Positions 2,063 through 53,312 of a DNA stretch of 64,000 nt are shown here, piece by piece (the first letter of the stretch is position 1; each line of letters begins with the position of its first letter). The notes under the pieces were generated by a model that saw nothing but the letters and a program-made list of their open reading frames with translations, ran no database searches and was not told the origin of the DNA. This stretch comes from an uncultured virus (IMG/VR IMGVR_UViG_3300010351_001916) (taxonomy: Duplodnaviria; Heunggongvirae; Uroviricota; Caudoviricetes), in the IMG/VR virus record IMGVR_UViG_3300010351_001916. The stretch is one strand, 5' to 3'. The translations under genes and the position numbers were made by a program.

Positions 2063-3559
2063 GTGCGCCTTCGCCCATACCAGATCCAAGCGATCGAGCG
2101 CGTGCACGAGCACGTTGCCGCAGGCGCCCGGCGACTGGTCGTCGTGCTCGCGACCGGAGGCGGGAAGACGACGATCGCCGTCGAGATCATCCTCGACGCC
2201 ATCGCGCAAGGGCAGTCCGTGCTGTTCCTCGCGCACCGCCGGGAGCTGATCTCGCAGACGTACCGGCGCCTCGTACAGATGGGCGTGCCCGAGCATGACG
2301 TCGGCGTGCTGATGGGCAACGACCCACGGCGCCGCCCTGGTGCGAAGGTCCAGGTCGCGAGCGTGGACACGCTCCGCAACCGGGCGAAGCCCAAGGCGGA
2401 CATCGTGTTCATCGACGAGTGCCATCGCGCACTTGCCCGTTCGTACCAGGAGATCGCCGCGTGCTACCCAGACGCCGTCCACCTGGGGCTCACGGCCACG
2501 CCTTATCGCGCCGACGGGCGCGGCCTGGGCGACGCCTACCAGGAGCTCGTCGTGGTCGCCTCGCCGAGCCAGCTCATCGCCGAGGGCTACCTGGTCGAGC
2601 CGAGCGTGTTCACCGTGCCGCGAGAGCACCTCCCCGACCTGTCGTCGGTGCATACGCGTGCGGGCGACTACGAGGGGCGCGAGCTCGAGGACGCGGTCAA
2701 CCGCAAGTCCCTCGTGGGCAACATCGTCGAGCACTGGCTGGAGCTCGCGCGGGGCAAGCGCACCGTCGCCTTCGCCGTCTCGGTCGAGCACTCGAAGAAC
2801 ATCGCTGCGCGGTTCGTCGAAGCGGGCATCCCAGCCGAGCACCTCGACGGGACCACTCCGGCGGCCGAGCGCGACGCGATTCTCGCCCGGCTTGAACGCG
2901 GCGAGACCCAGGTCGTCGCCAACTGCAACGTGCTCTGCGAAGGCTGGGATCAACCCTCGGTCAAGTGCGCCATCCTCGCCAGACCGACGAAGTCCACGGG
3001 ACTGTACCTTCAGCAGGCCGGCCGCATCCTGCGGCCTTGGAACGACGAGCGAGCGATCATCCTCGACCATGCCGGCTGCGCGGTCGAACACGGGCTCCCG
3101 CAGGACGACCGCGAGTTCTCTCTCGAGGGCAGGAAGAAGACGGGCCGACGCGGTCCCGTCGAGGCTCCGACCAAGGTGTGCGCGTCGTGCTGCGCCGTAG
3201 TGGCCGTCGCGTGCCGCACTTGTCCCGAGTGCGGGAGTGAGTTCCCCGCGTCCGAGCGGGTGCCCGAAGAGCGCAAGGGCGTGCTGGTATCCGCGGAGCA
3301 GGCCCGCGAGGAATACCTGCTCGATGAATGGGAGAAGCTGAATCGCAAGGCGATCGAGCGCGGGTACAAGCCGGGCTGGGTCTACTACCGGTTCAAGGAG
3401 AAGTTCGGTCGGGCCCCACCGCAGCGAAGCGTGGCGATCGCTCCGCCGGTTGAGGCCCGCTCGGCGGCGTTCGCGCGGATCCGGGCACAGGAGAGCAGCC
3501 CGGCATGGGCGGCGCTCCGTTTCAGGGTCGAGTTCGGCGAGCCGCCCCCATCGAGGTGA
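2063..3559 (+). CDS. SF2 DEAD/DEAH helicase (RadD/YejH-like) with C-terminal Zn finger
   Basis: LRPYQ, ATGGGKT, IDECH, GLTATP, QQAGRILR, CxxC...CxxC. Confidence 0.9.
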   Translation: MRLRPYQIQAIERVHEHVAAGARRLVVVLATGGGKTTIAVEIILDAIAQGQSVLFLAHRRELISQTYRRLVQMGVPEHDVGVLMGNDPRRRPGAKVQVASVDTLRNRAKPKADIVFIDECHRALARSYQEIAACYPDAVHLGLTATPYRADGRGLGDAYQELVVVASPSQLIAEGYLVEPSVFTVPREHLPDLSSVHTRAGDYEGRELEDAVNRKSLVGNIVEHWLELARGKRTVAFAVSVEHSKNIAARFVEAGIPAEHLDGTTPAAERDAILARLERGETQVVANCNVLCEGWDQPSVKCAILARPTKSTGLYLQQAGRILRPWNDERAIILDHAGCAVEHGLPQDDREFSLEGRKKTGRRGPVEAPTKVCASCCAVVAVACRTCPECGSEFPASERVPEERKGVLVSAEQAREEYLLDEWEKLNRKAIERGYKPGWVYYRFKEKFGRAPPQRSVAIAPPVEARSAAFARIRAQESSPAWAALRFRVEFGEPPPSR

Positions 3560-3609
3560 TGGCGGGCTCTGGGAGACGTGCGCCCTGCGGGGCGAGGAAG
3601 GTCGTGACC

Positions 3610-4803
3610 ATGTACGAGCCGCATCCAGTGTCTGAGCTTTTTCCGATGATGGACAACGTGGCGCTTGCTGGGTTGATCCGAGACATCAAGGCGAACGGGC
3701 TTCAAGAGCCCATCGTGCTGTGGGAGGGCAAAATCCTCGACGGTCGGAATCGGCTGAAGGCCTGCGAGCGGGCCGGCGTCGAGCCGCAGTTTCGGGAGCT
3801 GACCGAGTGTGTGTCGCCGCTCATCTACGTTGTCTCCGCCAACATCCATCGGCGCCATATGTCGGTGTCCCAGCGAGCGATGATCGGTGCGCTCATCAAG
3901 AAGCACCTCCAGGAGGAGGCCCGGAAGCACCGGGAAGCAGCCCGCGTCCAGAAGACCAGCGAGCAGATGGCAAAATTGCCATCTGGCGACGGTTGTGGTC
4001 CGTCCCGTGACATTGCCGCCAGAGCCGTAGGAGTCTCTGGCAGGACCGTCGAGTCCGCACTTCAACTTCTGCGGGCTGCGACTCCCGAGGTCGTGGAGAC
4101 AGTCCGCGCGGGCAAGATGAGCGTCAGTCGCGCAGCGAAGCTTGCGACGGAGCAACCGACGCACGAACCACCCGCCTCCGCGCCTGTTCCGCCGACGGAG
4201 GCCCGCATTCGCTGCTGCGATCCGAAGACCTTCCTCGACACCGTGCGCATCGAGACCGCGGACCTTCTCATCTCGCGCCCCACCTTCGACACAACCCCCG
4301 ACCACTACGAGGCTCACGCCCGGTACTGGCTCGGCGAGGCCGTGGCTCCGATGAAGTACACAAGCCGGATCTTCCTCATCTGCGAGCCCGACATCGACAT
4401 GGTGCACGCGCTCGCTGCGGCCTGCCGGCGCCAAGCACAGTTCGAGTGCTGCCACGTGATGACCTGGAGCCGATCGGGCCCGGCGCGCGGCACGCCGGGA
4501 TACGACTATCGTCCGCAGCACAAGGTCATCTTGCACCTGCGCGGCCTCGACGCGCCCGTGCTCGAAGCGAAGGGGAGCAAGGAAGCCACGACCGTCCACC
4601 GGGACTGCGCCACGATCGACACCCTCGCAGAGCGGCTGATTCGCCACTCCACGAAGCCCGGCGACCTGGTCATCGACCCTTCGGCCGAGAGCGGCGAGAT
4701 TCTGCTCGCTGCATCACGGCTCGGAAGGCGAGCCCTCGGCGCGACGCTCAGCAAGGCCGGGTTCGACACCGCGGTTCGCGCCGGGTGCATCGCCGATGGC
4801 TGA
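3610..4803 (+). CDS. ParB-like N-terminal domain plus degenerate N4/N6 methyltransferase-like domain
   Basis: NGLQEPIVLWEGKILDGRNRL...SANIHRRH; C-terminal LIRHSTKPGDLVIDP...LGRRALG, with DPPY replaced by SRPTF and FxGxG by SAESG. Confidence 0.7.
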   Translation: MYEPHPVSELFPMMDNVALAGLIRDIKANGLQEPIVLWEGKILDGRNRLKACERAGVEPQFRELTECVSPLIYVVSANIHRRHMSVSQRAMIGALIKKHLQEEARKHREAARVQKTSEQMAKLPSGDGCGPSRDIAARAVGVSGRTVESALQLLRAATPEVVETVRAGKMSVSRAAKLATEQPTHEPPASAPVPPTEARIRCCDPKTFLDTVRIETADLLISRPTFDTTPDHYEAHARYWLGEAVAPMKYTSRIFLICEPDIDMVHALAAACRRQAQFECCHVMTWSRSGPARGTPGYDYRPQHKVILHLRGLDAPVLEAKGSKEATTVHRDCATIDTLAERLIRHSTKPGDLVIDPSAESGEILLAASRLGRRALGATLSKAGFDTAVRAGCIADG

Positions 4804-12309: not shown

Positions 12310-12927
12310 TCAGCAGGGCAGCTCCTGGACCGAGCGGACCAGCTCCTCGTCGGTCGGGTGGGTGTAGATCGCGGTCGAAAGGATCGAGCAGTGCCGCGCG
12401 AAACGCTGCGTGAGGCGGATGTCTCGCGTGCGCCGGTAGAGCCCCGAGCACGCCGAGTGGCGAAGCGAATGAAAGTTGAAGTGTCGTTCGAAGCCGGCGC
12501 GCTTCTGCCAGACCGCGAAGAGGTGGCGCAGCTGCCGCGACGACAGGCGCCTGTGCTTGCGGCTCACGAAGAGCGGGGCGTCGCTCTCGACCGCGTGCCC
12601 CTCCGCCCGCTTCTGCTTGAGCAGCTTCTCGAGCTTGGCTCGGACGGTGTCGGACAGGACCACCTCCTGCGGCGCCGGGTCTTCGGTGGCGCGCTTGAAG
12701 ACGCGGAGCGCGACGTGGCGGCGAGCGCGACCGTCGGCGTCGAACACGTCGCCGATGTCGAGGGCCAAGAGCTCGTGCTCGCGCAGGCCGGTGCCGAGGG
12801 CGAGGCTGAAGATCACGTGGTCGCGCCACCCCGCCGCGTGCTCGCCGGTGGTTCGCAGCAGCACGGCGATTTCGCGTTCGGTCAGGGTGCGCGGAGGGCG
12901 TGCGATGGATTCGACGTAATTGCTCAT
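12310..12927 (-). CDS. Tyrosine recombinase, catalytic domain only (about 205 aa)
   Basis: [27 protein letters not shown]. Confidence 0.9.
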
Positions 12928-12933
12928 GCGTCG

Positions 12934-12964
12934 ATACAGGCTTCTTCCGACGCGCTCAGCAAGG
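12934..12964 (-). promoter_or_regulatory. Class E motif CCTTG-N16-RAGCCTGTAT, 6 nt before the recombinase ATG
   Basis: Same motif and spacing at 49775, 50204 and 51263. Confidence 0.65.
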
Positions 12965-12974
12965 GAAAGTGGCA

Positions 12975-14414
<1,440 letters not shown>

Positions 14415-14431
14415 TACGAAGTCACAACCCG

Positions 14432-16282
14432 CTACTCGGGTTTCGCCCATACGCGCTTCGCGATGACGAACAATACCCGCCCTCGTTCCAACGCGTCACT
14501 TTCAGACCAGGATGTCTTGCCCTGGAAATAGGCATTCAAGACGAGCGCAGATTCCAGCGCAACCTGGGGAAGCTTCTCCTTTGCAGGGCCGTTGCTCACC
14601 GAGCTGTTCAACGGTTGAGTCAGCAGCGTCAGGTTTCCGAAGTCGTGGATGATTTCCTCGCGCGCCAGAGCAGCCGCTTCGGGCTCGCTACCGTCCGGCA
14701 GCGGCCAGTCTTCGGCCTTCCATGACTGCGGGATAACGTGCTCGATCGTCAGCTTGTCCTGCATGGTGATCTTCTTCTCGCGCCTGGGGCTCATTCTAAC
14801 TTCCTCGGCTTCCTCAAGCGCGCGCAAGATCATTTCGGCTCGGCCGGCCTTCAACTCGCTGTAGGCATCGAGCGTCAGCCACGCTTTCTCGAAAGCCTCA
14901 TCGTCGGGCCAATCGACGTTCTCGCCTTTTCCGGCAGCGAGAAGCGTCTGAAATGCAATCCGTGTCGGTTTCTCGATGGCTTCAAAGTCCCGCAAGAGCT
15001 GCATGAACAACCGGTTGTAGTTCTTCGTCGGCCGACTGCAGATGAGCCTACGAACGAGGAAGGACTCCAGATCCTGGTAGATGCCGTTGCGCTCGGCGTT
15101 GGGGAGGCGCTCGTTGCCCAGCAGCGCGAGGACAAGAGGATATGCGGTGCTGATGTCGAGGACGCGCAAGCGCTCAGCGAACTGCCCAAGCTGGGTGGAC
15201 GTGTCTGGACGAAGCAGAGACAAGAAGTGATCTGCAAAGCGAGTGATGTCCTGCAACTCCTGCTCAACAGTATTGAACGGGCGTTCCTTTTCTATCCACG
15301 CCTTGTACTCCGGATACAACCTGCCGCTGTGCACGTCTCGGCTGAGCTTCATCGTGAGGTAGTGCTGAACGAGCAAGTCGAGACGCGCCCGGAACAAGCG
15401 GCCCTGCCTCTCCTCGGCCTCCCAGAATCTCGCGCCGTCTGGAATGGAGGGGTCGTTCGGCGTCTCGAATCTCGTCCAGTACAACCTATGCAATCGATCC
15501 GCCTCGGCCGAGCCGCCTGCTCTCTGGAAGATGAAGTTGCGCATCAGATCGGAAGCAAGCAGCGGAACTCCCCGAGCGTTTAGCGTCTCGAAGATCGCCT
15601 GTGGATCCTCGTGTCCTCCGAGTTCGATCGACACGAGCTGGAGGCGCTTATCAATGACCCGGCGAAGGATGCGTAGACGCTCAGCGACATGTTCCTCCCC
15701 GTTCTCGCGAAGCCACGCCGTGGCTGCATCGTGGAAGAAGAGATATGCCTCCACCATGCGCGGGCGGGGCTGGAGCCGCTTGCGACGAAACACGGGCGGG
15801 TGCTTTGCCTCGATCGCCGTCCTGGATCGGGCCGAGCTGACAAGCCGGAACTGCTCCACATCTCGGCTTGTCGGCCAGAGCTTGAACTGCTCGACCTCGG
15901 GATTCGCGATAACGTTGGGGTTTTTCGTGAGTCCGTCCAGCCACGGAGCGACCTGCTTGTCCCCAATTTCGAACGCGATATCGCGCAACGCCGCAAGGAA
16001 AATTTGGAAGGTGGTCAGGCGTTGCTGACCGTCGATGACATCGTGCGCAAGAATCTCGTCGCCCCAGGACTTGCGTTGCTGGATTACGATCGCGCCCATG
16101 AAGTGGACCGGAACATCCTCAGATGGGCCGGAGAGATCGACCTCCGCTCGATCAACGATGTCATCCCACAGGGGTTCCCACTGGAGCTCGCGAGACCACA
16201 CGTATGGTCGCTGGAAGAGCGGGATGGCGTATCTCCGCTCGTTCGCGAAAACGTTCGATAGGCTCTTCTTGAAGACTTCCAT
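14432..16282 (-). CDS. DUF262-DUF1524 (GmrSD/SspE-family) restriction nuclease
   Basis: IPLFQRPYVW, IDGQQRLTT, IFETLNARG, TIEHVIPQ, GNLTLL; antisense and lower GC. Confidence 0.9.
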   Translation of the reverse strand: MEVFKKSLSNVFANERRYAIPLFQRPYVWSRELQWEPLWDDIVDRAEVDLSGPSEDVPVHFMGAIVIQQRKSWGDEILAHDVIDGQQRLTTFQIFLAALRDIAFEIGDKQVAPWLDGLTKNPNVIANPEVEQFKLWPTSRDVEQFRLVSSARSRTAIEAKHPPVFRRKRLQPRPRMVEAYLFFHDAATAWLRENGEEHVAERLRILRRVIDKRLQLVSIELGGHEDPQAIFETLNARGVPLLASDLMRNFIFQRAGGSAEADRLHRLYWTRFETPNDPSIPDGARFWEAEERQGRLFRARLDLLVQHYLTMKLSRDVHSGRLYPEYKAWIEKERPFNTVEQELQDITRFADHFLSLLRPDTSTQLGQFAERLRVLDISTAYPLVLALLGNERLPNAERNGIYQDLESFLVRRLICSRPTKNYNRLFMQLLRDFEAIEKPTRIAFQTLLAAGKGENVDWPDDEAFEKAWLTLDAYSELKAGRAEMILRALEEAEEVRMSPRREKKITMQDKLTIEHVIPQSWKAEDWPLPDGSEPEAAALAREEIIHDFGNLTLLTQPLNSSVSNGPAKEKLPQVALESALVLNAYFQGKTSWSESDALERGRVLFVIAKRVWAKPE

Positions 16283-16360
16283 CAGGACCCTCTCTCGCCT
16301 GAATCTCACTGCAGGCGGATGATCTCGTCAAGCGTTCGTTCGTGGTGGGACCTTCCCGCG

Positions 16361-16397: not shown

Positions 16398-18212
16398 GTG
16401 ACTCCCGAATCAACCTCACCAGCCGCCGCAGCCACGGCCACATCTGTTTTCAAGGCCCTCGTCCTCGGCGCCACAACTCCCGACCAAGCCTCGCGCCCGG
16501 GCGGCGAGGTCGGCGCCGTATTCGCCTCGCTCGGCGCGCTGGAGCCGCCCTACGACCCGGAGGCGCTGTGCCTGCTCTTCGAGCACTCGAACTCCCTGCG
16601 CCAGAACGTCGACGCCTACGCCACCAACATCGACGGCTTCGGCCACCGCCTCGACCCTGCGATCGACTTCGACGCGGACGACGCCGATCGGCGCGTCGGC
16701 GAGTGCATCTTCCTCGAGCGCCTGGCCGCGCGCGATCACGGCGAGCTTCCCCCGGAGGCCGAGCTCGAGCCGACCTTGGACGAGATCAAGGAGCGACGGC
16801 GGGAGCTGGTCCAGCTCGCCCGCACCGAGCGGGCTCGGCTCGCGAGCTTCTTCGAGTTCTGCTCGTTCGATCATTCGTTCGTCGAGCTGCGCCGCCGCAC
16901 GCGTCAGGACCTCGAGGTCACGGGCAACGCGTACTGGGAGGTGCTGCGCAACGCCGCGGGCGAGGTCGCCCGCCTGGTGTACGTGCCGTCGTATACGATG
17001 CGACTGCTGCCGCTCGACGCCAACCCCGTTCCCGTCGAGGAGAGTGTGCGCATCTCGCCTGTCACCCTCGAGCGCGTGACGACGCGCCAGCGCATGCGCC
17101 GCTTTCTGCAGGTGCAGTACACACAGCGCACGTTCTTCAAGGCCTTCGGCGATCCGCGGTTCGTGTCGCGCACCACGGGCGAGGTCTTCGCCAGCCTCGA
17201 CCAGCTCCGCGCCCGCGATGCTGCCGACGGCCCCGCCACCGAGATCCTGCACTTCGCCATCCCGTCGCCCCGATCACCCTACGGCATCCCGCGATGGGTG
17301 GGCGGCCTGCTCGCCGTGATGGGGTCCCGGTCGATGGAGGAGGTAAACTACCTCTACTTCGAGAACAAGAGCGTCCCTCCGCTGGCGCTGCTCGTGTCCG
17401 GCGGGAAGCTCTCCGAAGCCTCTGTCCCGCGCATCGAGCGGTTCATCGAAGAGAACCTCAAGGGGAAGAACAACTTCCACAAGGTGCTAATCCTCGAGGC
17501 TGAAGGCGCCTCCAGCGCCAACGACGCAGCCCGCGCTCGCATCGAGCTTCGCCCGCTCACCGAGGCGCAGCAGCACGACGCACTGTTCCAGCAATACGAC
17601 GAGCGCAACATCGACAAGGTGGGCAGCGCGTTCCGGCTCCCGCGCCTGCTGCGCGGAGACAGCCGCGACTTCAACAGGGCCGTCGCCGACGCTCAGCTTC
17701 GCTTCGCCGAGGACCAGGTCTTCCAGCCCGAGCGCGACGAGTTCGACTTCATCGTCAACCGCAAGCTCCTCGCCGACATGGGCATTCGATTCTGGCGCTT
17801 CCGCTCGCAGACTCCCGTCACCCGCGATCCCGAGCGCATGACCAACATGGTCGAGAAGCTCGTGCGGGTCGGCGTGCTCACCCCTGAGGAAGGGCGCGCC
17901 CTTGCCAGCGACATCTTCAACCGCGAGTTTGCCAAGCTCAGCGCGGACTGGACGAAGCGCCCCATCACACTCACGCTCGCGGGAATCCAAAACGGCGTCG
18001 AAGATCTCCGGCCGAAGCCTCCAAGCGAAACCCTCATCGACCAGGCCAAGCGCCTCCTTGCCTTGCGCGAAGAGCTCGCCGCCGAGGAGGAGCGCCGGGC
18101 TGCCGAGCGGATGCACATGGCACGAGACGCAATGCGACGTCCCGAGCCTGAGCGCGTCGAGGTGCCGTCCGAGGAGTGGCGCACTTGGTTCCAGGAGGGT
18201 GGCGATGGATAG
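16398..18212 (+). CDS. Portal protein (PBSX family)
   Basis: LEPPYDP, DLEVTGNAYWEVLRN, EILHF, YGIPRW, YFENKSVP. Confidence 0.9.
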   Translation: MTPESTSPAAAATATSVFKALVLGATTPDQASRPGGEVGAVFASLGALEPPYDPEALCLLFEHSNSLRQNVDAYATNIDGFGHRLDPAIDFDADDADRRVGECIFLERLAARDHGELPPEAELEPTLDEIKERRRELVQLARTERARLASFFEFCSFDHSFVELRRRTRQDLEVTGNAYWEVLRNAAGEVARLVYVPSYTMRLLPLDANPVPVEESVRISPVTLERVTTRQRMRRFLQVQYTQRTFFKAFGDPRFVSRTTGEVFASLDQLRARDAADGPATEILHFAIPSPRSPYGIPRWVGGLLAVMGSRSMEEVNYLYFENKSVPPLALLVSGGKLSEASVPRIERFIEENLKGKNNFHKVLILEAEGASSANDAARARIELRPLTEAQQHDALFQQYDERNIDKVGSAFRLPRLLRGDSRDFNRAVADAQLRFAEDQVFQPERDEFDFIVNRKLLADMGIRFWRFRSQTPVTRDPERMTNMVEKLVRVGVLTPEEGRALASDIFNREFAKLSADWTKRPITLTLAGIQNGVEDLRPKPPSETLIDQAKRLLALREELAAEEERRAAERMHMARDAMRRPEPERVEVPSEEWRTWFQEGGDG

Positions 18213-18462: not shown

Positions 18463-18758
18463 AGGCCCTCGTGGCCACCAAGCGACCGTGCAACCTCGGT
18501 CGCAGCGAAATGCGGCGTGTTCCGCAGGACCGATCCTACCGCGGTATCGTCGGCTACCACGTCTGCTGCCCCCGCTGTGGATTCGTCACGGCGGTGCTGA
18601 ACGGCGCCGGGGGCCTGGCGATCACGGAGTCGGTGGACGAGGCAGTCTCGTTCTCCCAGCCGGCGCGCTGCGTGTTCTGCAACGTGCTGATCCACCTCGC
18701 CGCCGGCGAGCTCACCCTCGAGGAGGATGACCGTGTGCGGGACGTCACCTACCGATGA
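18459..18758 (+). CDS. Small Zn-ribbon protein
   Basis: CPRC...CVFC; GTGA overlap with the previous gene. Confidence 0.55.
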   Translation: MKALVATKRPCNLGRSEMRRVPQDRSYRGIVGYHVCCPRCGFVTAVLNGAGGLAITESVDEAVSFSQPARCVFCNVLIHLAAGELTLEEDDRVRDVTYR

Positions 18759-19806
18759 CCTCGCCCTGATTCGATGTGCGCGGCGCGCAGCCGACGAACT
18801 GCTCGTCGACCTCGGCGTTCCCGTTCGGAAGGCCTTCGATGTGGCGACGCCCCGAGGCTTCGACGCGGCGGTCTCGCGACTCGCGGCTCTACTCCGCAGG
18901 CTGGTTCGCGTCTCCGAGGCCGAGGCTGTGCGACAGGCAGTCGCGGTCCTCGACGTCGACTGGCGAGTAATGACTCCCGCGCGGCGGAGCCAGCTCGTTC
19001 GCCAGGCACTCGCGGCGGCCGGACGCGTGGTGTCCACCGTTCACGAGCAGGTGCGGGCGCCGCTTGGGCGCGCCGCGTCCGACGTGGTGGCGGCGACGCG
19101 ATCCGATGGGCGGCGGCGCGGACTCGCGATCGCCGCGGACTTCAATGCAGTGGACCGGCGCGCCGTCGCGTACGTGCTACGCGCCAACAGCCTGTTCGTG
19201 CGAGACGAGTACGGCCGACGGCTCGATTGGTTCGGCATCGAGGCAAAGCGCATTGTCGCTCGAGGGCTCGAAGATGGGCTCGGCCGCGACGAGATTGCCG
19301 GCGACCTGTCGCGCGCCGCGAACGCGGCGATGGTGCAGCGGTCCGCGTCATACTGGGATGTGATCGCCGCCTCGTTCGTGGGCGAAGCGCGAAGCCTCTC
19401 GCAGATCTCGTCCTATGCCGAGGCCGGCATCGAACGCTACATGCTGTCCGCGGTCCTCGACGAGCACACGACTGATACTTGCCGGTTCCTCGACGGGAAA
19501 GTCATCCAGACCGAGGACGCGGTCAGGATGCTCGACCGCATGGAGTCCACCGACGAGCCCGCCGCCATCAAGCAAGTCCGCCCGTGGGTACGCGAACGCT
19601 TCGGGGAGGACGGGAAGCGCGCTCTCGTGGTGGACCGCGACGGCGAGCGCAAACTGCTGGCCGTCGTCGAGCGATCCGGTGTCGGTGCCCGCGACGACCG
19701 TGGCGCGTATTCGCAAGCTGTCTCCGGTCGAGAACTCGCGCCCGCTGGAATCGGATTCCCGCCATTTCATGGCCTCTGCAGGACCACCACGGTTGCCGAC
19801 GTCTGA
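18727..19806 (+). CDS. Minor head / head morphogenesis protein (Mu gpF / SPP1 gp7-like)
   Basis: AVLDEHTTDTCRFLDG, PPFHGLCRTT. Confidence 0.85.
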   Translation: MTVCGTSPTDDLALIRCARRAADELLVDLGVPVRKAFDVATPRGFDAAVSRLAALLRRLVRVSEAEAVRQAVAVLDVDWRVMTPARRSQLVRQALAAAGRVVSTVHEQVRAPLGRAASDVVAATRSDGRRRGLAIAADFNAVDRRAVAYVLRANSLFVRDEYGRRLDWFGIEAKRIVARGLEDGLGRDEIAGDLSRAANAAMVQRSASYWDVIAASFVGEARSLSQISSYAEAGIERYMLSAVLDEHTTDTCRFLDGKVIQTEDAVRMLDRMESTDEPAAIKQVRPWVRERFGEDGKRALVVDRDGERKLLAVVERSGVGARDDRGAYSQAVSGRELAPAGIGFPPFHGLCRTTTVADV

Positions 19807-19877
19807 TCTGCAATTCACAACTACCCTGTTGCGCAGTTCGCCGTGCGATGCTCTTCTCCGTCCAAACGGAGGTCAAC

Positions 19878-20597
19878 GTGGCACGCAAGACCGAAGAATC
19901 CCCGACCGAGGCAATCGTAGTCGCCGAGCAGGAACCAGTGCTGCCGGCCAGCGCCGCGAAGCAGGACACAAAGCTCGTAGACAAGGCGGCAAAGCAAATC
20001 CGCGACATCCTCGCGCGCACCGTCTCGCAAGGCCTGGAGGACGTGGGCAACTACCTCCTCGACACGTTCTACGACGGAAAGCCCGAGCTGTACCAGTCGC
20101 TGAAGCCGAGCAAACACGCGTCGCTCACCCTGCTCGAGGAGCGCTGTGAGACGCTGGACCTGCCCGTGAGCCGCACGTTCCTCGCGAACGCGATCGGCGT
20201 CGCGGTGATGACCAAGCCCCTGCCTCGGTCGTCGCCGATCCTGAAGTTGCCGCCGAGTCACAAGCAGGAGCTCCTTCGCGTCAGCACCCCCGAGAAGGCG
20301 GAGAGCCTCGCGGAGAAAGCGCTAGAGGGGAAGCTCACCGTGCAGAAGCTCCGCGATCTGGTGCGCAAGGAGCGCACGAAGAGCAAGAAGAACCCGCAGG
20401 GGCGAAAGCCCACTCCGACCGTCGTGCGCGTGCTCACATCGTGCGCCAAACTGCTGCGCGATCAGACCACCGGGCGCATTGTGTTCCGGAAGGCCGACTT
20501 CGCTGAGCTCACGCCGGAGCAGGTGGACGACGTGAAGGAGCTGCGGGAGATGATCCTCAAGCGGATGGACGAAGTGCAGAAGCACCTCGGCGGATAG
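19878..20597 (+). CDS. Hypothetical helical, basic protein (cargo-like, possible DNA binder)
   Basis: GGAGG then GTG; lies between head genes and is followed by a class L motif. Confidence 0.65.
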   Translation: MARKTEESPTEAIVVAEQEPVLPASAAKQDTKLVDKAAKQIRDILARTVSQGLEDVGNYLLDTFYDGKPELYQSLKPSKHASLTLLEERCETLDLPVSRTFLANAIGVAVMTKPLPRSSPILKLPPSHKQELLRVSTPEKAESLAEKALEGKLTVQKLRDLVRKERTKSKKNPQGRKPTPTVVRVLTSCAKLLRDQTTGRIVFRKADFAELTPEQVDDVKELREMILKRMDEVQKHLGG

Positions 20598-20638: not shown

Positions 20639-20715
20639 CCCCTGCGTGACACAGCGCAGGTACCCGTTCCACGCCCCGTCGTCCAAGCCCGGCCTTGCAC
20701 CCGTGGAGGCGCGCC

Positions 20716-22947
20716 GTGGGTAGCGCTCTGTTGCGCGCGATCGAGCGGGCCTACGAGCTGCTCGAAACTCAGCGCACCGCGCCGGTCTGCAAGACCATCT
20801 GGGGATCGCCCGCGGGCAAGAAGCGGATCGCCGACCGCCTGGTCGCGATGCTGCCCACGCACAAGACCTACGTAGAGCCATTCGCGGGCAGCGCGGCGGT
20901 GCTGTTCGCGAAAGAGCGGAGCGAGGTCGAGGTCATCAACGACGCGGACACCGAGATCGCTCGCGCCTACAAGCTCGTTCAGAAGCTCAAAGCGAAGGAC
21001 ATCGCCCGACTCCGCGAGAAGAAGTGGGTCGGTGACGAAGCCACGTTCAAGAGCCTCATCGACGAAAACCCTCGCGACGACGTCGGCTGGCTGCACCGCT
21101 TCCTCTACCTGACCCACTTCTCGTACGGGAAGATGCGCGGCAAGAGCTTTTCGCCCTCGGTGAGCGGCGTCGAAGCAAAGACTGTCGACCGCATCGAGCA
21201 GTTCGCGCCCCGCCTCCGGGGCGTGAAGATCTACGGCGGCGACTACCGGCCCATCGTCGAGAAGTACGACGGCAAGGACACGGTCCACTTCCTCGACCCT
21301 CCCTACGCCGGATACAACGTCGATGTCGGCGAGGACGCCTTTGATGAAGCCGCGTTCTGCGAACTCCTCTGTAAGCTCGATGGCAAGTTCCTCGTAACCT
21401 ACGGCATTCGCGGGGAGCTGCCGAATTTGGTCAAGGAGGCTGGATTCGAGATTCGTCGGATTCGCACGCGCCGGAGCATCGGCTCCATGCGCGGAGTCGG
21501 CGGCCCTTCGATTCTCACCCAACTGCTCATCTCGAACTACGCCATTGCTCGCAAGAGCCTGGATGGGCTGCAGGACGACGGCTGGGAGGTCGAGGAGCCC
21601 GAGCGGGCCACGACGGTGTCGGTGCCCGGCTATTCCGACATCGGAATAGCTGACGGATCCGCCTTGGAAGCATGCGAATCCGGTGATGAAGCCCCCACCA
21701 GCGAGCTGGAGAAGGCCCAGCCCTTCGGCACCTTCGGGGGCTCGTTCCACTACGCCAAGCGGCTCCTCCCGCTCATTCCCGAGCACAAGGTCTACGTGGA
21801 GCCGTTCGCTGGCGCTGCCGCGCTTCTGCACGCCAAGGAACCCTCCGAGAAGGAAGTGCTCGCTGACCTCGATCCCGATGTGGTGTTCCTGCACCGGTCC
21901 ATCAAGGCGATGACACCGGAGCAGGTGGCCGAGCTCTCGCGCCGGTTCCCGTGGGAGGTCACCGAAGAGTCGTTCGCGAAGGCGCGGGACCTCGAGCCCA
22001 AGGATGACCTCGCGCGGTTCTACAAGCTCGTGTTCGTGCGCACCCACGCACGGGACTGCCGGCCGGATGGCACCCACCCCGCACGCCAGCACCTGGGCTC
22101 CACCACGAATCCCGAGAAGTACCTGAAAGCCGCCGAGCGGCTGCGCGACGTGACCATCCTTCGCCAGGACTACCGCAAGACGATTGAGAAGCTCGACGGC
22201 CCCGACACATTCTTCTTCATCGACCCGCCGTATCCCGGCGAGTGGTTCGACAAGGACGCGGTCATCGATCTCGACGAGTTCACCGGCGTGCTGAAGGGGA
22301 TTCGCGGGAAGTTCATTGCCGTACTCAACAACAGCCCGGAGAACGTTGCCGCGTTCAAGAAGGTCGGGCACATCTTCAAGCTCAAGGTCCGCGAGGCCTC
22401 CGGCCGCGGGGGTGCGAAGCAGGCCATGCGCCTGTTCTGCGCCAACTACCCCGTTCGCAAGAGCGTGGAGTTCGAGCTCGTGCCGAAGCGCGAAGGCGAG
22501 CCCTTTACCCGCACGTGCGCCCTGTTGAAGGGAACGGACCCGGGCGATGAGCGCTTCGTGCTGGGGATCGTGCTCGAGCCCGAGGTCGTCGACGCGCAGG
22601 GCGACATCTACTCCGCCGACGAGATCCGCCAGGCCGCTCACCGCTTCATGGAGGAGTTCGGCGGTCTGGGGCTCATGCACCGGATGCGCGTCAACGACCA
22701 GGTGAAGGTGCTGGAGAGCTACCTCGCTCCGGTCGAGTTCGATCTCGCGGGGGTGGCGGTGCGGAAAGGGACCTGGCTCCTCGGCGTGCACGTCATCTCC
22801 GATGAGCTTTGGGGCCAGGTGAAGGACGGCACGCTCACCGGCTTCTCGATCGGTGGCTCTGCTCGACGTCATCCGGAGCCGAGCAAGTCCCCGAACGTCC
22901 CCGATTCCACCGCCGCCGACTCTGCAGCTCAGGAGGTTCCCGCTTGA
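20716..22947 (+). CDS. Two tandem Dam/D12-class adenine MTase domains fused to an XkdF-like prohead protease
   Basis: YVEPFAG twice and DPPY twice; C-terminal GIVLEPEVVDAQGDIYSADEI...LMH...GTWLLG...TGFSIGG. Confidence 0.88.
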   Translation: MGSALLRAIERAYELLETQRTAPVCKTIWGSPAGKKRIADRLVAMLPTHKTYVEPFAGSAAVLFAKERSEVEVINDADTEIARAYKLVQKLKAKDIARLREKKWVGDEATFKSLIDENPRDDVGWLHRFLYLTHFSYGKMRGKSFSPSVSGVEAKTVDRIEQFAPRLRGVKIYGGDYRPIVEKYDGKDTVHFLDPPYAGYNVDVGEDAFDEAAFCELLCKLDGKFLVTYGIRGELPNLVKEAGFEIRRIRTRRSIGSMRGVGGPSILTQLLISNYAIARKSLDGLQDDGWEVEEPERATTVSVPGYSDIGIADGSALEACESGDEAPTSELEKAQPFGTFGGSFHYAKRLLPLIPEHKVYVEPFAGAAALLHAKEPSEKEVLADLDPDVVFLHRSIKAMTPEQVAELSRRFPWEVTEESFAKARDLEPKDDLARFYKLVFVRTHARDCRPDGTHPARQHLGSTTNPEKYLKAAERLRDVTILRQDYRKTIEKLDGPDTFFFIDPPYPGEWFDKDAVIDLDEFTGVLKGIRGKFIAVLNNSPENVAAFKKVGHIFKLKVREASGRGGAKQAMRLFCANYPVRKSVEFELVPKREGEPFTRTCALLKGTDPGDERFVLGIVLEPEVVDAQGDIYSADEIRQAAHRFMEEFGGLGLMHRMRVNDQVKVLESYLAPVEFDLAGVAVRKGTWLLGVHVISDELWGQVKDGTLTGFSIGGSARRHPEPSKSPNVPDSTAADSAAQEVPA

Positions 22948-23753
22948 GCGCACCCGAAGACCCCAACGCTGGTGTCCACCGGCTCGTCGACATGGTCGTC
23001 GAGGAAGTCTCCCTCGTCGACCGCGCTGCGAACAAGCACCGATTTCTCGTCGTGAAGAGGGATGAATCCATGGCTGACATGACCAAGAACAGCAGCGCAA
23101 AGCCGCCGGCGGCACCCAGCGCGCCGGAGAGCGACGGCGCCGAGCAAGTGACCAAGGCGATCGGCGACGCGCTCGGCATCGCCACGACGGCGCTCGAGGC
23201 GCTCACCAACGCGATCGAGCAACTCGGCCAGATCGTCGGCGACGCCGACACGACCCCGATTGTCGCCGAGCTTGCCGAGGAGCTCTCCTCGGTTGCCGGG
23301 CAGCTTGCCTCCGCAGCGGGCGTCGAGCCCAGCGCTTCAGGGACGTCCAGCGACGTCAGCGGCGCGGTCGAGGGCGTGCGATCGATGCTCGCTCAGGTGT
23401 CGGAGCTGCTCGCGTCGTCGGCCACGAAGAACACGCCCGAGCAGCCCCCGACGGCCTCGACTCCGGCCCCTGCGTCCGAGCCACAGCCCGGGCCGCAGGC
23501 GAGCGAGCCAAACGAGGTCTCCAAGCAGCTCTCTTCGGTGGCCGCTTCGATGCGAACGCTCGCCGACGCGATGAAGGACCAGTCCCAGCGCCTCGGGCGC
23601 CTGGAGAAGGGAGTCGGACTCCCCAATAGCCGGCAGGCTCCGGAGCGCCCCACCGGGCGACCCGGCACCGAGGAAGTGAGCTGGCCCCTCGATCTCAACC
23701 GCCCGATGGACCGGGAGAGCGTCGACAAGACGACCTCCTTCCACGACCGCTGA
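22944..23753 (+). CDS. Scaffold-like protein with N-terminal protease strand [10 protein letters not shown]
   Basis: GGAGG then TTG overlapping the upstream TGA; coiled-coil and Pro/Ala-rich; directly precedes the capsid gene. Confidence 0.7.
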
Positions 23754-23766
23754 GGAAGGAAGACCC

Positions 23767-24705
23767 ATGAGCTACACGTCGAATCGGACGCTGCTCGAGA
23801 AGGCGGACCTCGCCATCGCCGACCTGACCGCGGGAGGCGGCATCCTGCTGCCCGCGCAGGCGCAGAAGTTCATGCGGCTGCTCGTCAAGCAGTCGGTGCT
23901 GATGCAGGCGGCGACCGTCGTCCCGATGCCCGCGCCCAAATACCAGGTGTCGAAGATCAGGTTCGGCAGCCGAATCCTGCGTCCGGGACACGAGGGCGTT
24001 GCCCTGACCCCGGCCGAGCGCAGCCGGCCCGACCTGTCGTTCCTCGAGCTCGATGCCCAGCTGTTCAAGGCCGAGGTACATCTCTCCGACGAGGTGCTCG
24101 AGGACAACATCGAGCGCGGTGAGCTCCGCCAGACCATCCTCGAGATGATCGCGGAGGCCGCGGGCCGGGACATGGAGGAGATCGTCATCAACGGCGACAA
24201 GACCTCTGCCGACCCGTTCCTCGCGGTGCTCGACGGCGTGCTCAAGCAGTCGACCTCCCACGTGGTCGATGTCGCGGGTGGCCCGCTGACCAAGAACATC
24301 CTGCGCGACCTGCTCAAGTCGCTGCCCACCGAGTATCTGCGCGACAAGAAGGCGATGTCGTACCTGACAAGCGTGGATGCGGACCTAGAGTACCGCAATT
24401 CGCTGGCGGAGCGAGCGACGGTCGGCGGCGACAAGTTCCTCGAGGACGACACCCCGGTGCTGTACTCGGGCGTGCCCGTCACGCCGATTCCGCTCTTCCC
24501 GGACAACCTTGGGCCGGGAAACAACCAGACCGTTGCGCTGCTGTGCAACCCCAAGAACGTCCACGTCGGCATCTGGCGCCAGATCCGGCTCGAGTCCTTC
24601 CGCGACGTGTCGGCAGGCGTGCTGCGCATCGTGGCGACACTCCGCTTTGACGTGAAATTCGCCGACGAGAACGGCACGGCCAAGGCCGTCAACATTCAGC
24701 TGTGA
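23767..24705 (+). CDS. Major capsid protein
   Basis: [34 protein letters not shown]. Confidence 0.9.
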
Positions 24706-30887: not shown

Positions 30888-31349
30888 ATGGCAGTCATCG
30901 GCAACCCGCGCAGCTTCCACAAAAAGTTCAAGTTCGTCGTCGAGATCGACGACATCGGCCACGCCGGCTTCCAGAAGTGCAGCGAGCTCTCGGTCGAGGT
31001 CGCGAACGTGCAGTACTTCGAGGGCGGCTCGCTCATCCCGAACAAGAGCCCTGGCCGTGTGACGTTCGCGGACGTCACGCTCGAGCGCGGCGCCACCGTG
31101 GACCGCGACCTGTTCGACTGGCTGCAGGACGTCGTGGTCACCTCCAGCGGGCTCGGGCTCACCGACCCGTACTACAAGCGCAACCTCGACATCGTGCAGC
31201 AGGACCGCGACGGCACGACGCTCCGCCGCTGGTGCTTGTCACGCGCCTGGCCGACGAAGTTCGTGGCCGGGGAGTGGGATAACGAGGCGGACGAGAACGT
31301 GATCGAGTCGGTGACGCTCTCCTACGATTTCTTCGAGTTGATTCAGTGA
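30888..31349 (+). CDS. Tail tube protein (T4 gp19-like)
   Basis: [29 protein letters not shown]. Confidence 0.92.
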
Positions 31350-31355
31350 GGCGGG

Positions 31356-32378
31356 CTACTTCGGGAGGTACGCCCGGACGACGTCTCCGATGCGGCGCTG
31401 AAGTTCCTGTACCCCGTCAAGCACGCGCCTCGCGACGACAGCCTCGCCCTCGACGTCGGCCATGCCCACGTCCTTCATGACCGCAACCGTCTTCAGGACT
31501 CGCGCCTGGTAATTGATCTCGGCTACGAGTTCGCTGATGCCCGGAGCGAGTCCTTCGCACGAGTAGGCGTGGACGGCGCGGCTCGTCGCGTGCTCTTCAA
31601 TAAGGCTTGCGACATCCTGAACCTGCTCTCCCGTCAGACGCTGGTCGACGATCGCAAGTTGCAGCATGCCTGTCAGGTTCGTCCATCCTTGGTTCAGAAT
31701 GCTCAGCGCGGCCTTCGCTCGCCGAGCATCAGCCTGATGCCCACGAATGGCCTCATCACTCAGCACCTGGAGATTCCTCGCGAGTTCAGCTCGATCGTGA
31801 GCCCGCCCTTCACGCTCCTTCTGCAACTCGGCGCTTAGCGCGAGATGGGAATTCGGAAGGTGCTTCGCTGCGATGTCGAGATGGGCTGTGAGCAGGTCGA
31901 CCAAGTCGGTCGCGTCGCGGTACTCGATGGCGCATGCCTGAATCCGCTGCTGCACCTGGGCATGCGCCCCCTTGAATGTGGCCGCGAACGTGCTCGCGTC
32001 TGTCCTCAGTCCCGCCATTAGCCAGCCGAGTTCGGGGTGCGAGAGCTGTCGGGGGAACAGCAGAACCCACGAGCTACAGGTGAACGGATGGCAGTGGGCT
32101 CGAACGAAAGCGTCGACCACTGCTTTCTTGTGGGCGTCCTTGTCGTCGCTCAGGTCCTGGAAGAACTTGGCTTGATAGACACGGCCATCTCCGGTGACCG
32201 GGTCCTGAAACCCAACCCCATCAAGCCCACCGTCTCCGCGTGTCACCCGTACGTTGTGTACCCTCGGGTCAGTACGGCGAAGGAGGTCGGTCCAGATCGC
32301 CTCGTGAAGGTCGCCGGCCGCCGTATACGTGCCGTTCGGGGCGTTTTCGAGGATGGCCTGATAGATGTCGATGGGCAT
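31356..32378 (-). CDS. Restriction-endonuclease-fold protein (Mrr-like N-terminus) with helical C-terminus
   Basis: HE...RGDGGLDG...YQAKFF; antisense cargo. Confidence 0.65.
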   Translation of the reverse strand: MPIDIYQAILENAPNGTYTAAGDLHEAIWTDLLRRTDPRVHNVRVTRGDGGLDGVGFQDPVTGDGRVYQAKFFQDLSDDKDAHKKAVVDAFVRAHCHPFTCSSWVLLFPRQLSHPELGWLMAGLRTDASTFAATFKGAHAQVQQRIQACAIEYRDATDLVDLLTAHLDIAAKHLPNSHLALSAELQKEREGRAHDRAELARNLQVLSDEAIRGHQADARRAKAALSILNQGWTNLTGMLQLAIVDQRLTGEQVQDVASLIEEHATSRAVHAYSCEGLAPGISELVAEINYQARVLKTVAVMKDVGMADVEGEAVVARRVLDGVQELQRRIGDVVRAYLPK

Positions 32379-32477: not shown

Positions 32478-32664
32478 ATGGTCAACACCATCACGTGCCC
32501 GTCGGGGCTCTCGGGCCGTATCCACAGCCTCAAGGTACCCGAAGAGTGCTTTCTTACGGATCGAAAGCCCGCCAAGAGCGGGAGGGAGCGTCGTCGACGA
32601 GGCGGACGAGAACGTGATCGAATCGGTGACGTTGGCTTACGTTTGCTTCGAGCTGATTCAGCGA
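32478..32664 (+). pseudogene. Chimeric remnant: 5' end of a tail chaperone joined to the 3' end of a tail tube gene
   Basis: 32478-32601 resembles 33745-33864; 32597-32664 resembles 31282-31349. Confidence 0.85.
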
Positions 32665-51338: not shown

Positions 51339-52244
51339 ATGCTCAACACGCTGCGCTTCGGGATCGAGATCGAGACGGTGGGCCTGGGACGCGAAGGCCT
51401 CGCGAATGCCATCCAGAGCGTGGTTGGCGGAACCAAGACTGCCGACTACCGCAGCTGGAAGATCGTAGACGCCAAGGGCCGCAGCTGGAGGGTGGTGCCG
51501 GATGGTTCGCTGAGCGGCGGAGAGCAGAGCGGGGAGATCGTCAGCCCGGTCCTCGGCTACGACGATATCGATGAGTTGCAGCAGGTGGTTCGGGCGGTGC
51601 GCAACGCGGGCGGACGCTCCGACCTGAGTTGCGGAATCCACGTCCACATTGACGGAAGCCGATTCGATGCGCGCGGGGTGACGAATCTGGTCAAGATGGT
51701 GCACAAGCAGGAGCGCTTGATCGAACAGGCGCTCGGGATCAGCGAGACCCGCCTCCAGCGCTACTGCCGCCCGGTCGACGCGGAGTTCATCCGCCGCCTG
51801 GAGAGCCGCCGCCCGCGCACGATGCAGGAAGTCAGCGACGCCTGGTACGGGCGCCGCAACGCGAACCCCGATCGCTATGATTCGAGTCGCTATCACGGAG
51901 TCAACCTAAACAGCCTGTTTTTTAGGGGATCGATCGAGCTGAGGTTCTTCAACGGGACGACGCACGCGGGCGAGATCAAGTCGTACATTCAATTCGCTCT
52001 CGCGCTCGCCGCCAAGGCGCTCGGGTCGAAGGCAGCATCGAGCCGCCGCCGCGAATACAACGCAGCGACTTCGAAGTACGACATGAGGGTCTGGCTCCTC
52101 GGCCTCGGGATGATTGGCGACGAGTTCAAGACCGCCCGGCTGCACCTGCTCAAGAAGCTCGGCGGCTCCGCTGCTTGGAAGGGCGAGCGCCGCGATCGCG
52201 CCCAGGGCGACCAGCGCGCAGCCCAGGAGGAACGTGCCGCATAA
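51339..52244 (+). CDS. Amidoligase (COOH-NH2 ligase family)
   Basis: [40 protein letters not shown]. Confidence 0.9.
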
Positions 52245-52257
52245 CGCAATAGCCCGG

Positions 52258-52279
52258 GGGGGCCCGGCCGCGGGCCCCC
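52258..52279 (+). terminator. GC hairpin after the amidoligase gene (no U-tract)
   Basis: GGGGGCCCG-GCCG-CGGGCCCCC. Confidence 0.4.
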
Positions 52280-52447
52280 AAGCCAGGCCGCAAGTTCTGC
52301 TGACGCCCTGATTCGGGCATCGCGCAGAATCCTCGAAGAACCCGCAGGCCCTGATACGTACATCAGGGCGGCGACAATCGGGGGGCGAGAATCCTCGAGG
52401 ATTGTCGAAGGTGATAGTTGGAACACAACCCGCATGTACATCCGGCC

Positions 52448-52762
52448 ATGAAGACGAACAACGCAATCAGCAAGACGCCCGCGAACGCCAACATCAATGT
52501 ATCGCTTGCCCACAGCCGCTACGGGACAGCGCAGCCGCAGGTCGAGATCCGCTACCCGCGCGGGACCCACTACCGCGTAGTGCGCGCCGCCCTCTACGCC
52601 CTTGCCGCGAAGCTCGAGACCGCGACGCCGGCCGGGGACAACTGGGTCGTCGAAGTCGACGCTTTCGGCGACGAGAGCGGGCGAGTGTACCTCGAACTGG
52701 TCAAGGCCGACGACGCCGAGACGAAGCGCGGGCTCGCGCTGCTCCGAAAGGTGGTCGGCTGA
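52448..52762 (+). CDS. Hypothetical protein
   Basis: 104-aa ORF with typical codon use. Confidence 0.55.
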   Translation: MKTNNAISKTPANANINVSLAHSRYGTAQPQVEIRYPRGTHYRVVRAALYALAAKLETATPAGDNWVVEVDAFGDESGRVYLELVKADDAETKRGLALLRKVVG

Positions 52763-52871
52763 CCGGGCCGGGGGCAGGGGCGCCAAGCGCGCTCCCGCCC
52801 TCGACTTGTCGCGCGCGAGAAGCGATTCATGATACGCGGGCAGGGAGCCCGCCGACGCGGGAGAAACGAAC

Positions 52872-53312
52872 GTGCTCTACTTTGCCTATGGCTCGAATCT
52901 CAACGAAGCGCAGATGCGCGAGCGCTGCCCAAGCGCCGTGCGCGGTCCGCGCGCGCGCCTTCGCGGCTACGCGCTGACGTTCGGCGGGTTCAGCCACCGA
53001 TGGGGCGGCGCGGTGGCAAGCGTCATCCGGGCGCATGGAGCCGAAGTGCACGGGCTCCTCTACGCCATCGACGCCGAGGACATCGCGGCGCTCGACCGCT
53101 GCGAGGGCCACCCCTTCGCGTACGAGCGCGTGGAGCGCATCGTCATCGACGAGGAGAGCCGCCGCCGGCGCGTTCATCTCTACCTCCAGCCCGAGGAGGG
53201 CTTCGAGCCGTGGGAGCCCGCCCCGGACTACTACGCGGTCCTGCGGCGCGCGTACGCCCGCTTGGGCTTCGACCGGAGGCGGCTGGCTGCCGCAGCGCGG
53301 GTGGCGGCATGA
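52872..53312 (+). CDS. Gamma-glutamylcyclotransferase-family protein
   Basis: LYFAYGSNL, LDRCEG. Confidence 0.88.
   Translation: MLYFAYGSNLNEAQMRERCPSAVRGPRARLRGYALTFGGFSHRWGGAVASVIRAHGAEVHGLLYAIDAEDIAALDRCEGHPFAYERVERIVIDEESRRRRVHLYLQPEEGFEPWEPAPDYYAVLRRAYARLGFDRRRLAAAARVAA

Follow-up and report, generated by a model that had tools for sequence, protein, structure and literature searches.

The locus

The window, as we call the whole 64,000-nucleotide stretch of IMG/VR virus record IMGVR_UViG_3300010351_001916 (Caudoviricetes) analysed here, has the look of a complete myovirus prophage of Myxococcota, with genes for terminase, portal, sheath, tube, tape measure and baseplate. In its head operon, between the gene for a MuF-like minor head protein and those for the scaffold and capsid, a single open frame (20716–22947, + strand) encodes 743 amino acids (aa), in which two adenine methylases precede a prohead protease of the XkdF kind; GGAGG stands 6 nucleotides (nt) 5' of the GTG start. 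This polyprotein is our subject. An earlier analysis, made from the letters and open reading frames (ORFs) alone and referred to below as the sequence-only reading, had described it as one chain, cut after lysine at each domain border and carried with its methylases into the procapsid. What that reading overlooked, to judge from the sequences of relatives, is that the protease is split: the last strand of its fold opens the next gene, that of the scaffold. The principal features are these:

16398..18212, +, portal protein; K19 conserved
18727..19806, +, MuF-like minor head protein; K35 conserved
20716..22947, +, polyprotein gene, 743 aa: leader, methylase I, acidic linker, methylase II, linker, XkdF core, tail
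20716..20793, +, leader, putative propeptide, 26 aa, ending in K26; conserved helix, H4-18 in the model
20794..21555, +, methylase domain I, D12/Dam family, ending in K280; EPFAG at 20875, DPPY at 21295
21556..21714, +, acidic linker, 53 aa, ending in K333; 15 D/E and 2 K/R, mostly of low model confidence
21715..22461, +, methylase domain II, D12/Dam family, ending in K582; EPFAG at 21799, DPPY at 22222
22531..22890, +, XkdF (PF14550) protease core, without its last strand; His655 at 22678–22680, Ser711 (in GFSIG) at 22846–22848
22944..23753, +, scaffold gene, long form; TTG start, AGGAGG at 22931–22936
22974..23057, +, the protease's missing piece, at the scaffold N-terminus; invariant Glu at 23004–23006, then K38
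23070..23753, +, nested short scaffold; in-frame ATG at 23070, GAGG 9 nt upstream
23767..24705, +, major capsid protein; K12 conserved

Searching with the full-length protein returned 520 matches, the close relatives mainly in Myxococcota records, and the same gene is present in cultured Myxococcus xanthus AM003 and Corallococcus strains. We examined 186 homologues, of which 149 pass a completeness filter; in these 149, as in the window, the polyprotein is a single ORF. Some genomes carry two or more copies of the prophage family: JAJZQG01 (L001, L002, L005–L007), JACRCQ01 (L003, L008) and NZ_JABFNS01 (L023, L062). Contigs of two runs, X1 and X2, are identical to the window wherever they overlap it, X1 possibly being its source, and none of them spans the protease–scaffold junction with 31 letters on each side. 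RNA run X23 holds only short pieces of relatives and is uninformative on expression. Upstream of the gene, where the sequence-only reading placed a 'class L motif' that it did not define, an imperfect palindrome (20684–20697) occurs once in the window, with near-matches at chance level, and is not kept in most relatives. We found no upstream repeat common to the loci, and Rfam has no match within the window.

The methylases

Pfam finds PF02086 in the protein as two stretches and PF14550 at residues 608–718. The order of parts given by the sequence-only reading, two adenine methylase domains, each with EPFAG and DPPY, upstream of an XkdF protease, is thus borne out by sequence and by Pfam. The PF02086 score is 107.5 bits (cut-off 22) over the two stretches, and that of TIGR00571, again a total over two stretches, is 119.9 (cut-off 114.85). 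Motif I (F-x-G) precedes motif IV (DPPY) and both are intact, the arrangement of the D12/Dam family. The two domains are 32% identical to each other. Among 338 full-length domains of the family, DPPY is kept in every one and EP[FY]xG in 332. The ratio of nonsynonymous to synonymous substitution rates (dN/dS) is 0.03–0.08 for both methylases in all five comparisons with close loci; against the same five, that of the protease is 0.04–0.12 and that of the linker 0.20–0.45. Because DPPY is intact and dN/dS is low, these sequences indicate working enzymes, stacked in varying number.

The target of the methylases is a separate matter. We considered an equivalog of the GATC methylase Dam and rejected it by score, the PRK10904 equivalog model giving 35 bits against a cut-off of 441. 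Counts of 4-mers gave no hint of a target site, and the observed/expected ratio of GATC, 0.82 in positions 1–54000, is uninformative.

A protease in two pieces

The PF14550 match is strong (102 bits; cut-off 24), and the His and Ser are invariant in 50 sequences. The core stops just past GFSIG, however, and the last strand of the fold is absent from the chain. In the single-chain proteases of HK97, T4 and the assemblins this strand is part of the same chain; the protease of the window lacks it, and would work like a prohead protease only as a two-chain enzyme. The best structural matches of the core model are T4 gp21 (5jbl; Z 6.6, root-mean-square deviation 4.5, 105 aligned residues), whose match to the model ends at residue 150, and the herpesvirus protease 1vzv (Z 4.8, root-mean-square deviation 3.1, 88 aligned), both Z values being middling. 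Foldseek gave a probability of 0.95 for the core with an E-value of 0.1 and nothing at E ≤ 0.001, and a sequence search matched the protease to no solved structure. A gp21-type protease, that of SPN3US, has its catalytic residues at H77, S153 and D178 according to the accessible text of PMC5694885, placing the third about 25 residues after the Ser.

The missing strand is found at the opening of the scaffold gene. Of 142 loci, 129 have it in an ORF separate from that of the protease (in frames accounting for 118, 6 and 5 of them) and three, all distant, have it in the same ORF; in the other 10, several of them truncated by contig ends, it was not found. One of the intact loci, L141, shows how the pieces fit together: the core of the window aligns with residues 18–127 of its protease and the strand with residues 141–173. 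The strand also aligns with the N-terminus of a single-chain XkdF. By virtue of its position, the invariant Glu of this strand is the presumed third catalytic residue. When core and strand were predicted as a complex, the score was 0.77, the best of three controls scoring 0.00, on a measure whose mark 116 of 157 solved complexes attain, as do 2 of 215 mismatched pairs. Prediction runs agreed in at least 79% of contacts, the partner's pLDDT (predicted local distance difference test) was at least 59, and strand residues 12–17 pair with the strand of GFSIG. Because the halves of split genes tend to pass such a test through their likeness to solved folds, the prediction suggests that the pieces fit, and does not imply binding itself.

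A programmed frameshift joining the protease to the strand was rejected, since the strand is found in every one of the three frames and as far as ~400 nt beyond the stop. A PHROG scan of 60 proteins of the window revealed no second prohead protease; the match of the MuF gene to a protease PHROG covers its MuF part only.

Two starts for the scaffold

The long form of the scaffold begins at a TTG that overlaps the polyprotein stop by 4 nt. From its N-terminus it presents the strand, then K38, then a nested ATG, and its C-terminus bears a WPxDLN motif. The nested ATG is present in 89 of 91 loci, 82 of them with a Shine–Dalgarno sequence (SD), compared with 9–19 per ~100, and 0–3 with an SD, in control windows. 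No such pattern precedes the protease. The sequence-only reading had named, as telling against itself, a protease translated only from an internal start; at sequence level that objection fails, because within the 26 codons that precede the protease only one of the 91 loci has an ATG with an SD. Starts of any kind with an SD fall there in 12 of 91 loci, against 4–12 in four control windows. A GGAG followed after 9 nt by GTG does exist near 22480, and we rejected it as a family feature since such starts are equally common in the controls.

In many relatives a short ORF lies directly 5' of the polyprotein and ends K..VVWPRDLN..WG.DP, copying the WPxDLN end of the scaffold. There are 63 motif matches of this kind in 142 loci (for example L018:4914-5099 and L053:4068-4265) versus 103 scaffold matches, and the ORF is possibly a mini-scaffold or size factor. 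The window has none, as comparison with its scaffold end (23682–23753) indicates; the corresponding position, between MuF and polyprotein, is occupied by an ORF of 243 aa (19866–20597, + strand) with a weak match to a ParB helix-turn-helix (E 0.004).

Lysines at the borders

Five lysines in a hydrophobic-x-K-small setting were proposed as cleavage sites by the sequence-only reading, and they stand where it placed them: K26 (20791), K280 (21553), K333 (21712), K582 (22459) and K605 (22528). Of the five, K333, K582 and K605 never vary among 39 homologues with two methylases, and conservation of K26 and K280 is 90% or more. We extended the count to every border of the 186 homologues that could be anchored by a regular expression, leaving the others uncounted. 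A border lysine precedes the type I methylase in 171 of 171 cases and the type II or III methylase in all 93, in two registers (81% and 19%). It follows type I, at +6 or +5 (75% and 26%), in nearly all of 204, follows type II or III in 99% of 78, and precedes the protease in 88% of 155. Lysine also stands before the optional insert described below (27 of 27; 94% of 16 in distant relatives) and after the InPase cargo of distant relatives (50% plus 19% of 16). Other linker positions are mostly 0–12% lysine. The residue at P3 is V, L or I, that at P1' mainly T, A, S or G, and the distance from lysine to fold differs among the methylase types. In the structure model, four of the five lysines lie in or between segments of low confidence.

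Similar lysines had been noted near the N-termini of other head proteins and in the scaffold, and with one exception these proved to be conserved: portal K19 in 95% of 42, MuF K35 in 95% of 74, capsid K12 in 90 of 90, and the scaffold LEK-G lysine, K222, in 95% of 102. Scaffold K38 reaches 98%, and K38, K222 and K262 all fall within 94–100%. The exception is the scaffold VTK-A (K71), where lysine makes up 28% of the column, and it has been dropped as a conserved site. All four proteins have further conserved lysines inside their folds as well. HK97 and some myophage head proteases cut after lysine; our literature search returned no passage on this point, and for the XkdF protease such specificity is putative.

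A slot for exchangeable cargo

The 149 complete homologues fall into 14 architectures with from zero to three methylases, which are of four paralog types 30–48% identical to one another, and with an optional insert of ~85 aa. The commonest arrangement is I-II (47), followed by I alone (37) and Ia-I-insert-III (15). Type I is the only methylase in 47 (37 plain, 10 with the insert) and type II in 2; three domains are present in 37, and Ia-I and Ia-II pairs occur, too. We therefore rejected an obligate methylase pair, number and pairing both being variable.

The insert (WSRAFINDLPDSAF...; residues 850–935 in P0014) is flanked by lysines, shifts its position within the polyprotein, and is absent from the window protein. 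It belongs to no named family, its best matches in the Atlas being unnamed; a match to DUF6582 (0.83, on 12% of members) serves only as a lead.

The sequence-only reading had suggested that a survey of homologues might reveal interchangeable cargo at this position, and it does. The wider protease family numbers 3189 representatives at E ≤ 1e-10. We scanned 113 of the best 150, the longer ones outside the close set, and found D12 methylases in 23, InPase in 24 (one match below cut-off, eight located C-terminal to the protease), ATP-dependent DNA ligase in 9, Tad3 in 4 (the matches covering half of the profile) and a 2H domain in 1. At least one of these is present in 50 of the 113, and most of the others have long unannotated extensions. 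The partial matches to Tad3, an anti-Thoeris protein, are in polyproteins P0222 (2190 aa), P0273, P0300 and P0307; P0222 carries an intein and a DNA ligase, as well. With extensions this long and mostly unannotated, the slot looks a promising source of anti-defence proteins not yet described; Tad3 is already matched there in part.

How the polyprotein might work

Our best reading, to which we give a probability of about 0.55, is that the cargo docks on the scaffold and is cut after lysine in the procapsid, freeing the methylases to act on phage DNA. The methylases and the His/Ser core are in all likelihood made as one chain. A minority form of the scaffold, from the upstream start, would carry the missing beta-strand with its presumed third catalytic residue, and the majority, from the nested start, would be without it. 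Very probably, insertion of the strand would both hook the polyprotein to the scaffold and complete the active site, and the hook would bring the cargo into the procapsid. There the protease would probably cut after [VLI]-x-K, trimming the N-termini of portal, MuF and capsid, breaking up the scaffold, and freeing the methylases. Each methylase, of 27–28 kDa, would be cut loose at both ends, the leader and acidic linker being discarded. The freed enzymes would stay in the head and add N6-methyladenine to the phage DNA during packaging or, in an alternative timing, would exit along with the DNA and modify it once inside the new host; either way, the methylation would protect against host restriction. 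The dose of cargo would depend on the balance between the two starts of the scaffold, and the polyprotein position would be a slot that other lineages fill with more methylases, or with other enzymes.

A number of points weigh against this reading. What was observed is anatomy and conservation; from these we infer packaging, cleavage and delivery, and the lysine specificity of the protease, too. The homologues share ancestry, so that the percentages above inflate their independent support. Within the single protein the motif [AVLIFM]-x-K-[AGST] is not enriched (eight copies versus 4.9 ± 2.1 in 2000 shuffles, p = 0.11), three of the eight lie inside domains, and we dropped such enrichment as evidence. 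K280 falls in a short modelled helix. K26 aligns with the lysine that opens the free-standing methylase 7m6b, and the pre-protease lysine is present in cargo-free and single-chain proteases, as well; for this reason both may simply be family features, judging from the alignments. In cargo-free proteases the latter may instead be an autoactivation site, by analogy with the N-terminal cut of T4 gp21 described in the accessible text of PMC9958956. In distant relatives the pre-protease lysine is scattered, 100 of 121 having it within −8..−2 compared with 52, 58 and 91 elsewhere. Finally, condensed DNA in the head would be a poor substrate, and the few copies ejected would have to outrun restriction.

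Other explanations must be set beside this one. We think it rather unlikely, though by no means far-fetched, that methylation takes place in the producer cell and that the fusion is a device for timing or dosage: the methylases would modify progeny DNA before packaging, as Mom of phage Mu does, being released once protease and long scaffold come together in the cytoplasm, or by leakage from the procapsid, and their presence in the mature virion would be unneeded. S-adenosylmethionine and open DNA are both present there. Mu Mom is a late, toxic modification of progeny DNA, and Dam-related non-specific methylases are encoded at the mom locus of Mu-like prophages (both in the accessible text of PMC3299994); moreover, all of our sequence results fit this explanation equally well. 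Against it, a separate late gene would suffice without any fusion; cuts on both sides and removal of the acidic linker would exceed what is needed to free the protease; and the same slot also holds InPase, which Iyer et al. (2017, PMC5512222), in the accessible text, assign chiefly to polyvalent proteins of phages, for which packaging is predicted.

Improbable, in our estimation, is that no processing occurs at all—that the conserved lysines are the ordinary ends of folds and the protein acts whole, or its methylases serve as units of DNA-binding or spacing in the head. The lysine shared with 7m6b, that of the cargo-free proteases and the insignificant enrichment all speak for this, and the N4 virion RNA polymerase, as the available part of PMC5512222 recounts, is packaged uncut despite its peptidase domain. 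The same P3/P1' pattern recurs, however, at the edges of folds that are unrelated, as well as in portal, MuF, scaffold and capsid; the distance from lysine to fold varies with methylase type; and the catalytic motifs are fully retained. Conservation across homologues thus supports lysines that flank the domains, insignificant though they are in one sequence. More improbable still is the M.FokI-like pair suggested in the sequence-only reading, in which domains I and II would each methylate one strand of one asymmetric site. Two D12-family domains do share a chain, no single architecture is commoner than I-II-protease (47 of 149), and PADLOC matches the protein once, in two stretches, to a type II methylase model of 643 positions. 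That suggestion loses ground because methylase number varies from zero to three among the 14 architectures: single-methylase forms are common (lone type I in 47 of 149, with lone type II in 2), 37 have three domains, and Ia pairs with I and with II. Conserved lysines on both sides of the linker, furthermore, point to separation.

A broader proposal, which we offer tentatively as less likely than not, goes further. The half-protease, joined to any domains flanked by lysines and activated by the strand of the long scaffold, might be a general delivery module that loads, frees and doses anti-defence enzymes. Its cargo in myxobacterial phages would be one to three methylases of different specificity, which would be ejected and would methylate the DNA in the new host. 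The existence of cultured myxobacteria with the gene makes such a reading testable.

Other features of the window

Elsewhere in the window, a GmrSD-like type IV restriction gene (14432–16309, − strand) separates terminase from portal and is read from the opposite strand, odd company for a phage that would methylate its own DNA. A 221-aa tyrosine recombinase domain (12310–12975, − strand) is encoded directly before the terminase gene, likewise on the opposite strand. In the early region is a second, unrelated methylase-like gene (3505–4803, + strand), with ParB-like and N6_N4_Mtase matches. Two copies of the tail tube gene's 3' end (31282–31349 and 32597–32664; 68 nt, 87%) flank an inserted 340-aa ORF of no family (31356–32378, − strand). 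Amidoligase and gamma-glutamyl cyclotransferase genes (51339–53312, + strand) follow those of the tail.

Comparison with known systems

The polyprotein has the hallmarks of a polyvalent protein: at least two enzyme domains in one chain, encoded among virion genes, with a C-terminal peptidase. Such proteins, with an assemblin-like peptidase, were described by Iyer et al. (2017, PMC5512222), who predicted their processing during virion assembly; a later paper (Iyer et al. 2022, PMC9503650) described a Nudix domain fused to a capsid-processing serine peptidase and predicted injection. The packaging route was thus already predicted in 2017 and 2022. In the parts of the 2017 paper at hand, polyvalent proteins resemble ours in joining several enzyme domains in a late-gene chain, and InPase and 2H are listed as cargo. 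They differ in their methylase, which is DarB-type, EcoKI/TaqI-like and fused to a helicase, whereas here it is D12/Dam. The accessible portions of the two papers give no cleavage motif, split protease or nested scaffold. Our literature search, which left most subscription papers out of reach, found no experimental test of the packaging-and-release route, and no account of stacked D12 methylases, of an XkdF–methylase fusion, of a lysine code, or of a split or permuted protease. Should our reading be right, a route predicted only in general terms would gain a definite mechanism and the exact positions of its cuts.

Other XkdF-type proteases (PF14550; PHROGs 3017 and 1530) have the same core, with His and Ser in GxS(I/L/M), and PHROG 1530 already unites a methylase annotation with that core. 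The Pfam text presumably mentions a methylase fusion, too. The strand is differently disposed among them. In the PBSX-like PBP180 ORF10 and in Lactococcus phage 28201 it is at the N-terminus of the same chain, a circular permutation. In the cultured phages PPSC2 and, probably, RHph_TM16 and RcZahn (L144, L143 and L147) it is on the next gene as here, with no methylase or other cargo; the assignment is by motif in the last two, and rests on the motif in PPSC2 as well, where the profile match is weak (probability 1.9, E 0.025). The 'methyltransferase' labels of PPSC2 orf4 and RHph_TM16 gp142 are carried-over annotation, these being bare proteases of 151 and 210 aa.

T4 gp21 and herpesvirus assemblin, the best two structural matches, are single-chain enzymes, and their cargo is encoded by separate genes with targeting leaders. 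T4-type proteases cut after Glu (A-X-E in SPN3US), that of the window putatively after Lys. Internal proteins of T4 are trimmed and later injected, as the accessible text of PMC9958956 relates. P1 DarB offers another parallel: an anti-restriction protein that is carried in the virion and co-ejected, it has an adenine methylase domain. Unlike our polyprotein it is a methylase–helicase of ~2000 aa from another methylase family, with no fusion to a head protease. Methylases of the Hia5/Hin1523 type reside at the mom locus of Mu-like prophages, those of the window in the head operon. If our reading is true, Dam-family methylases join the list of virion cargo.

In lambda (C/Nu3), herpes simplex virus 1 (HSV-1) and HFTV1 (gp17/gp17.5) the scaffold is made from an internal in-frame start (bioRxiv 10.64898/2026.09.13.751334, accessible text), as it would be here. 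In all three the scaffold is joined to an entire protease; here it is joined to the last strand only, and for that reason the core is free to carry cargo. Unless we are mistaken, this would be a two-chain prohead protease both recruited and activated by its scaffold, an arrangement that would explain how cargo can be swapped freely without change to scaffold or capsid.

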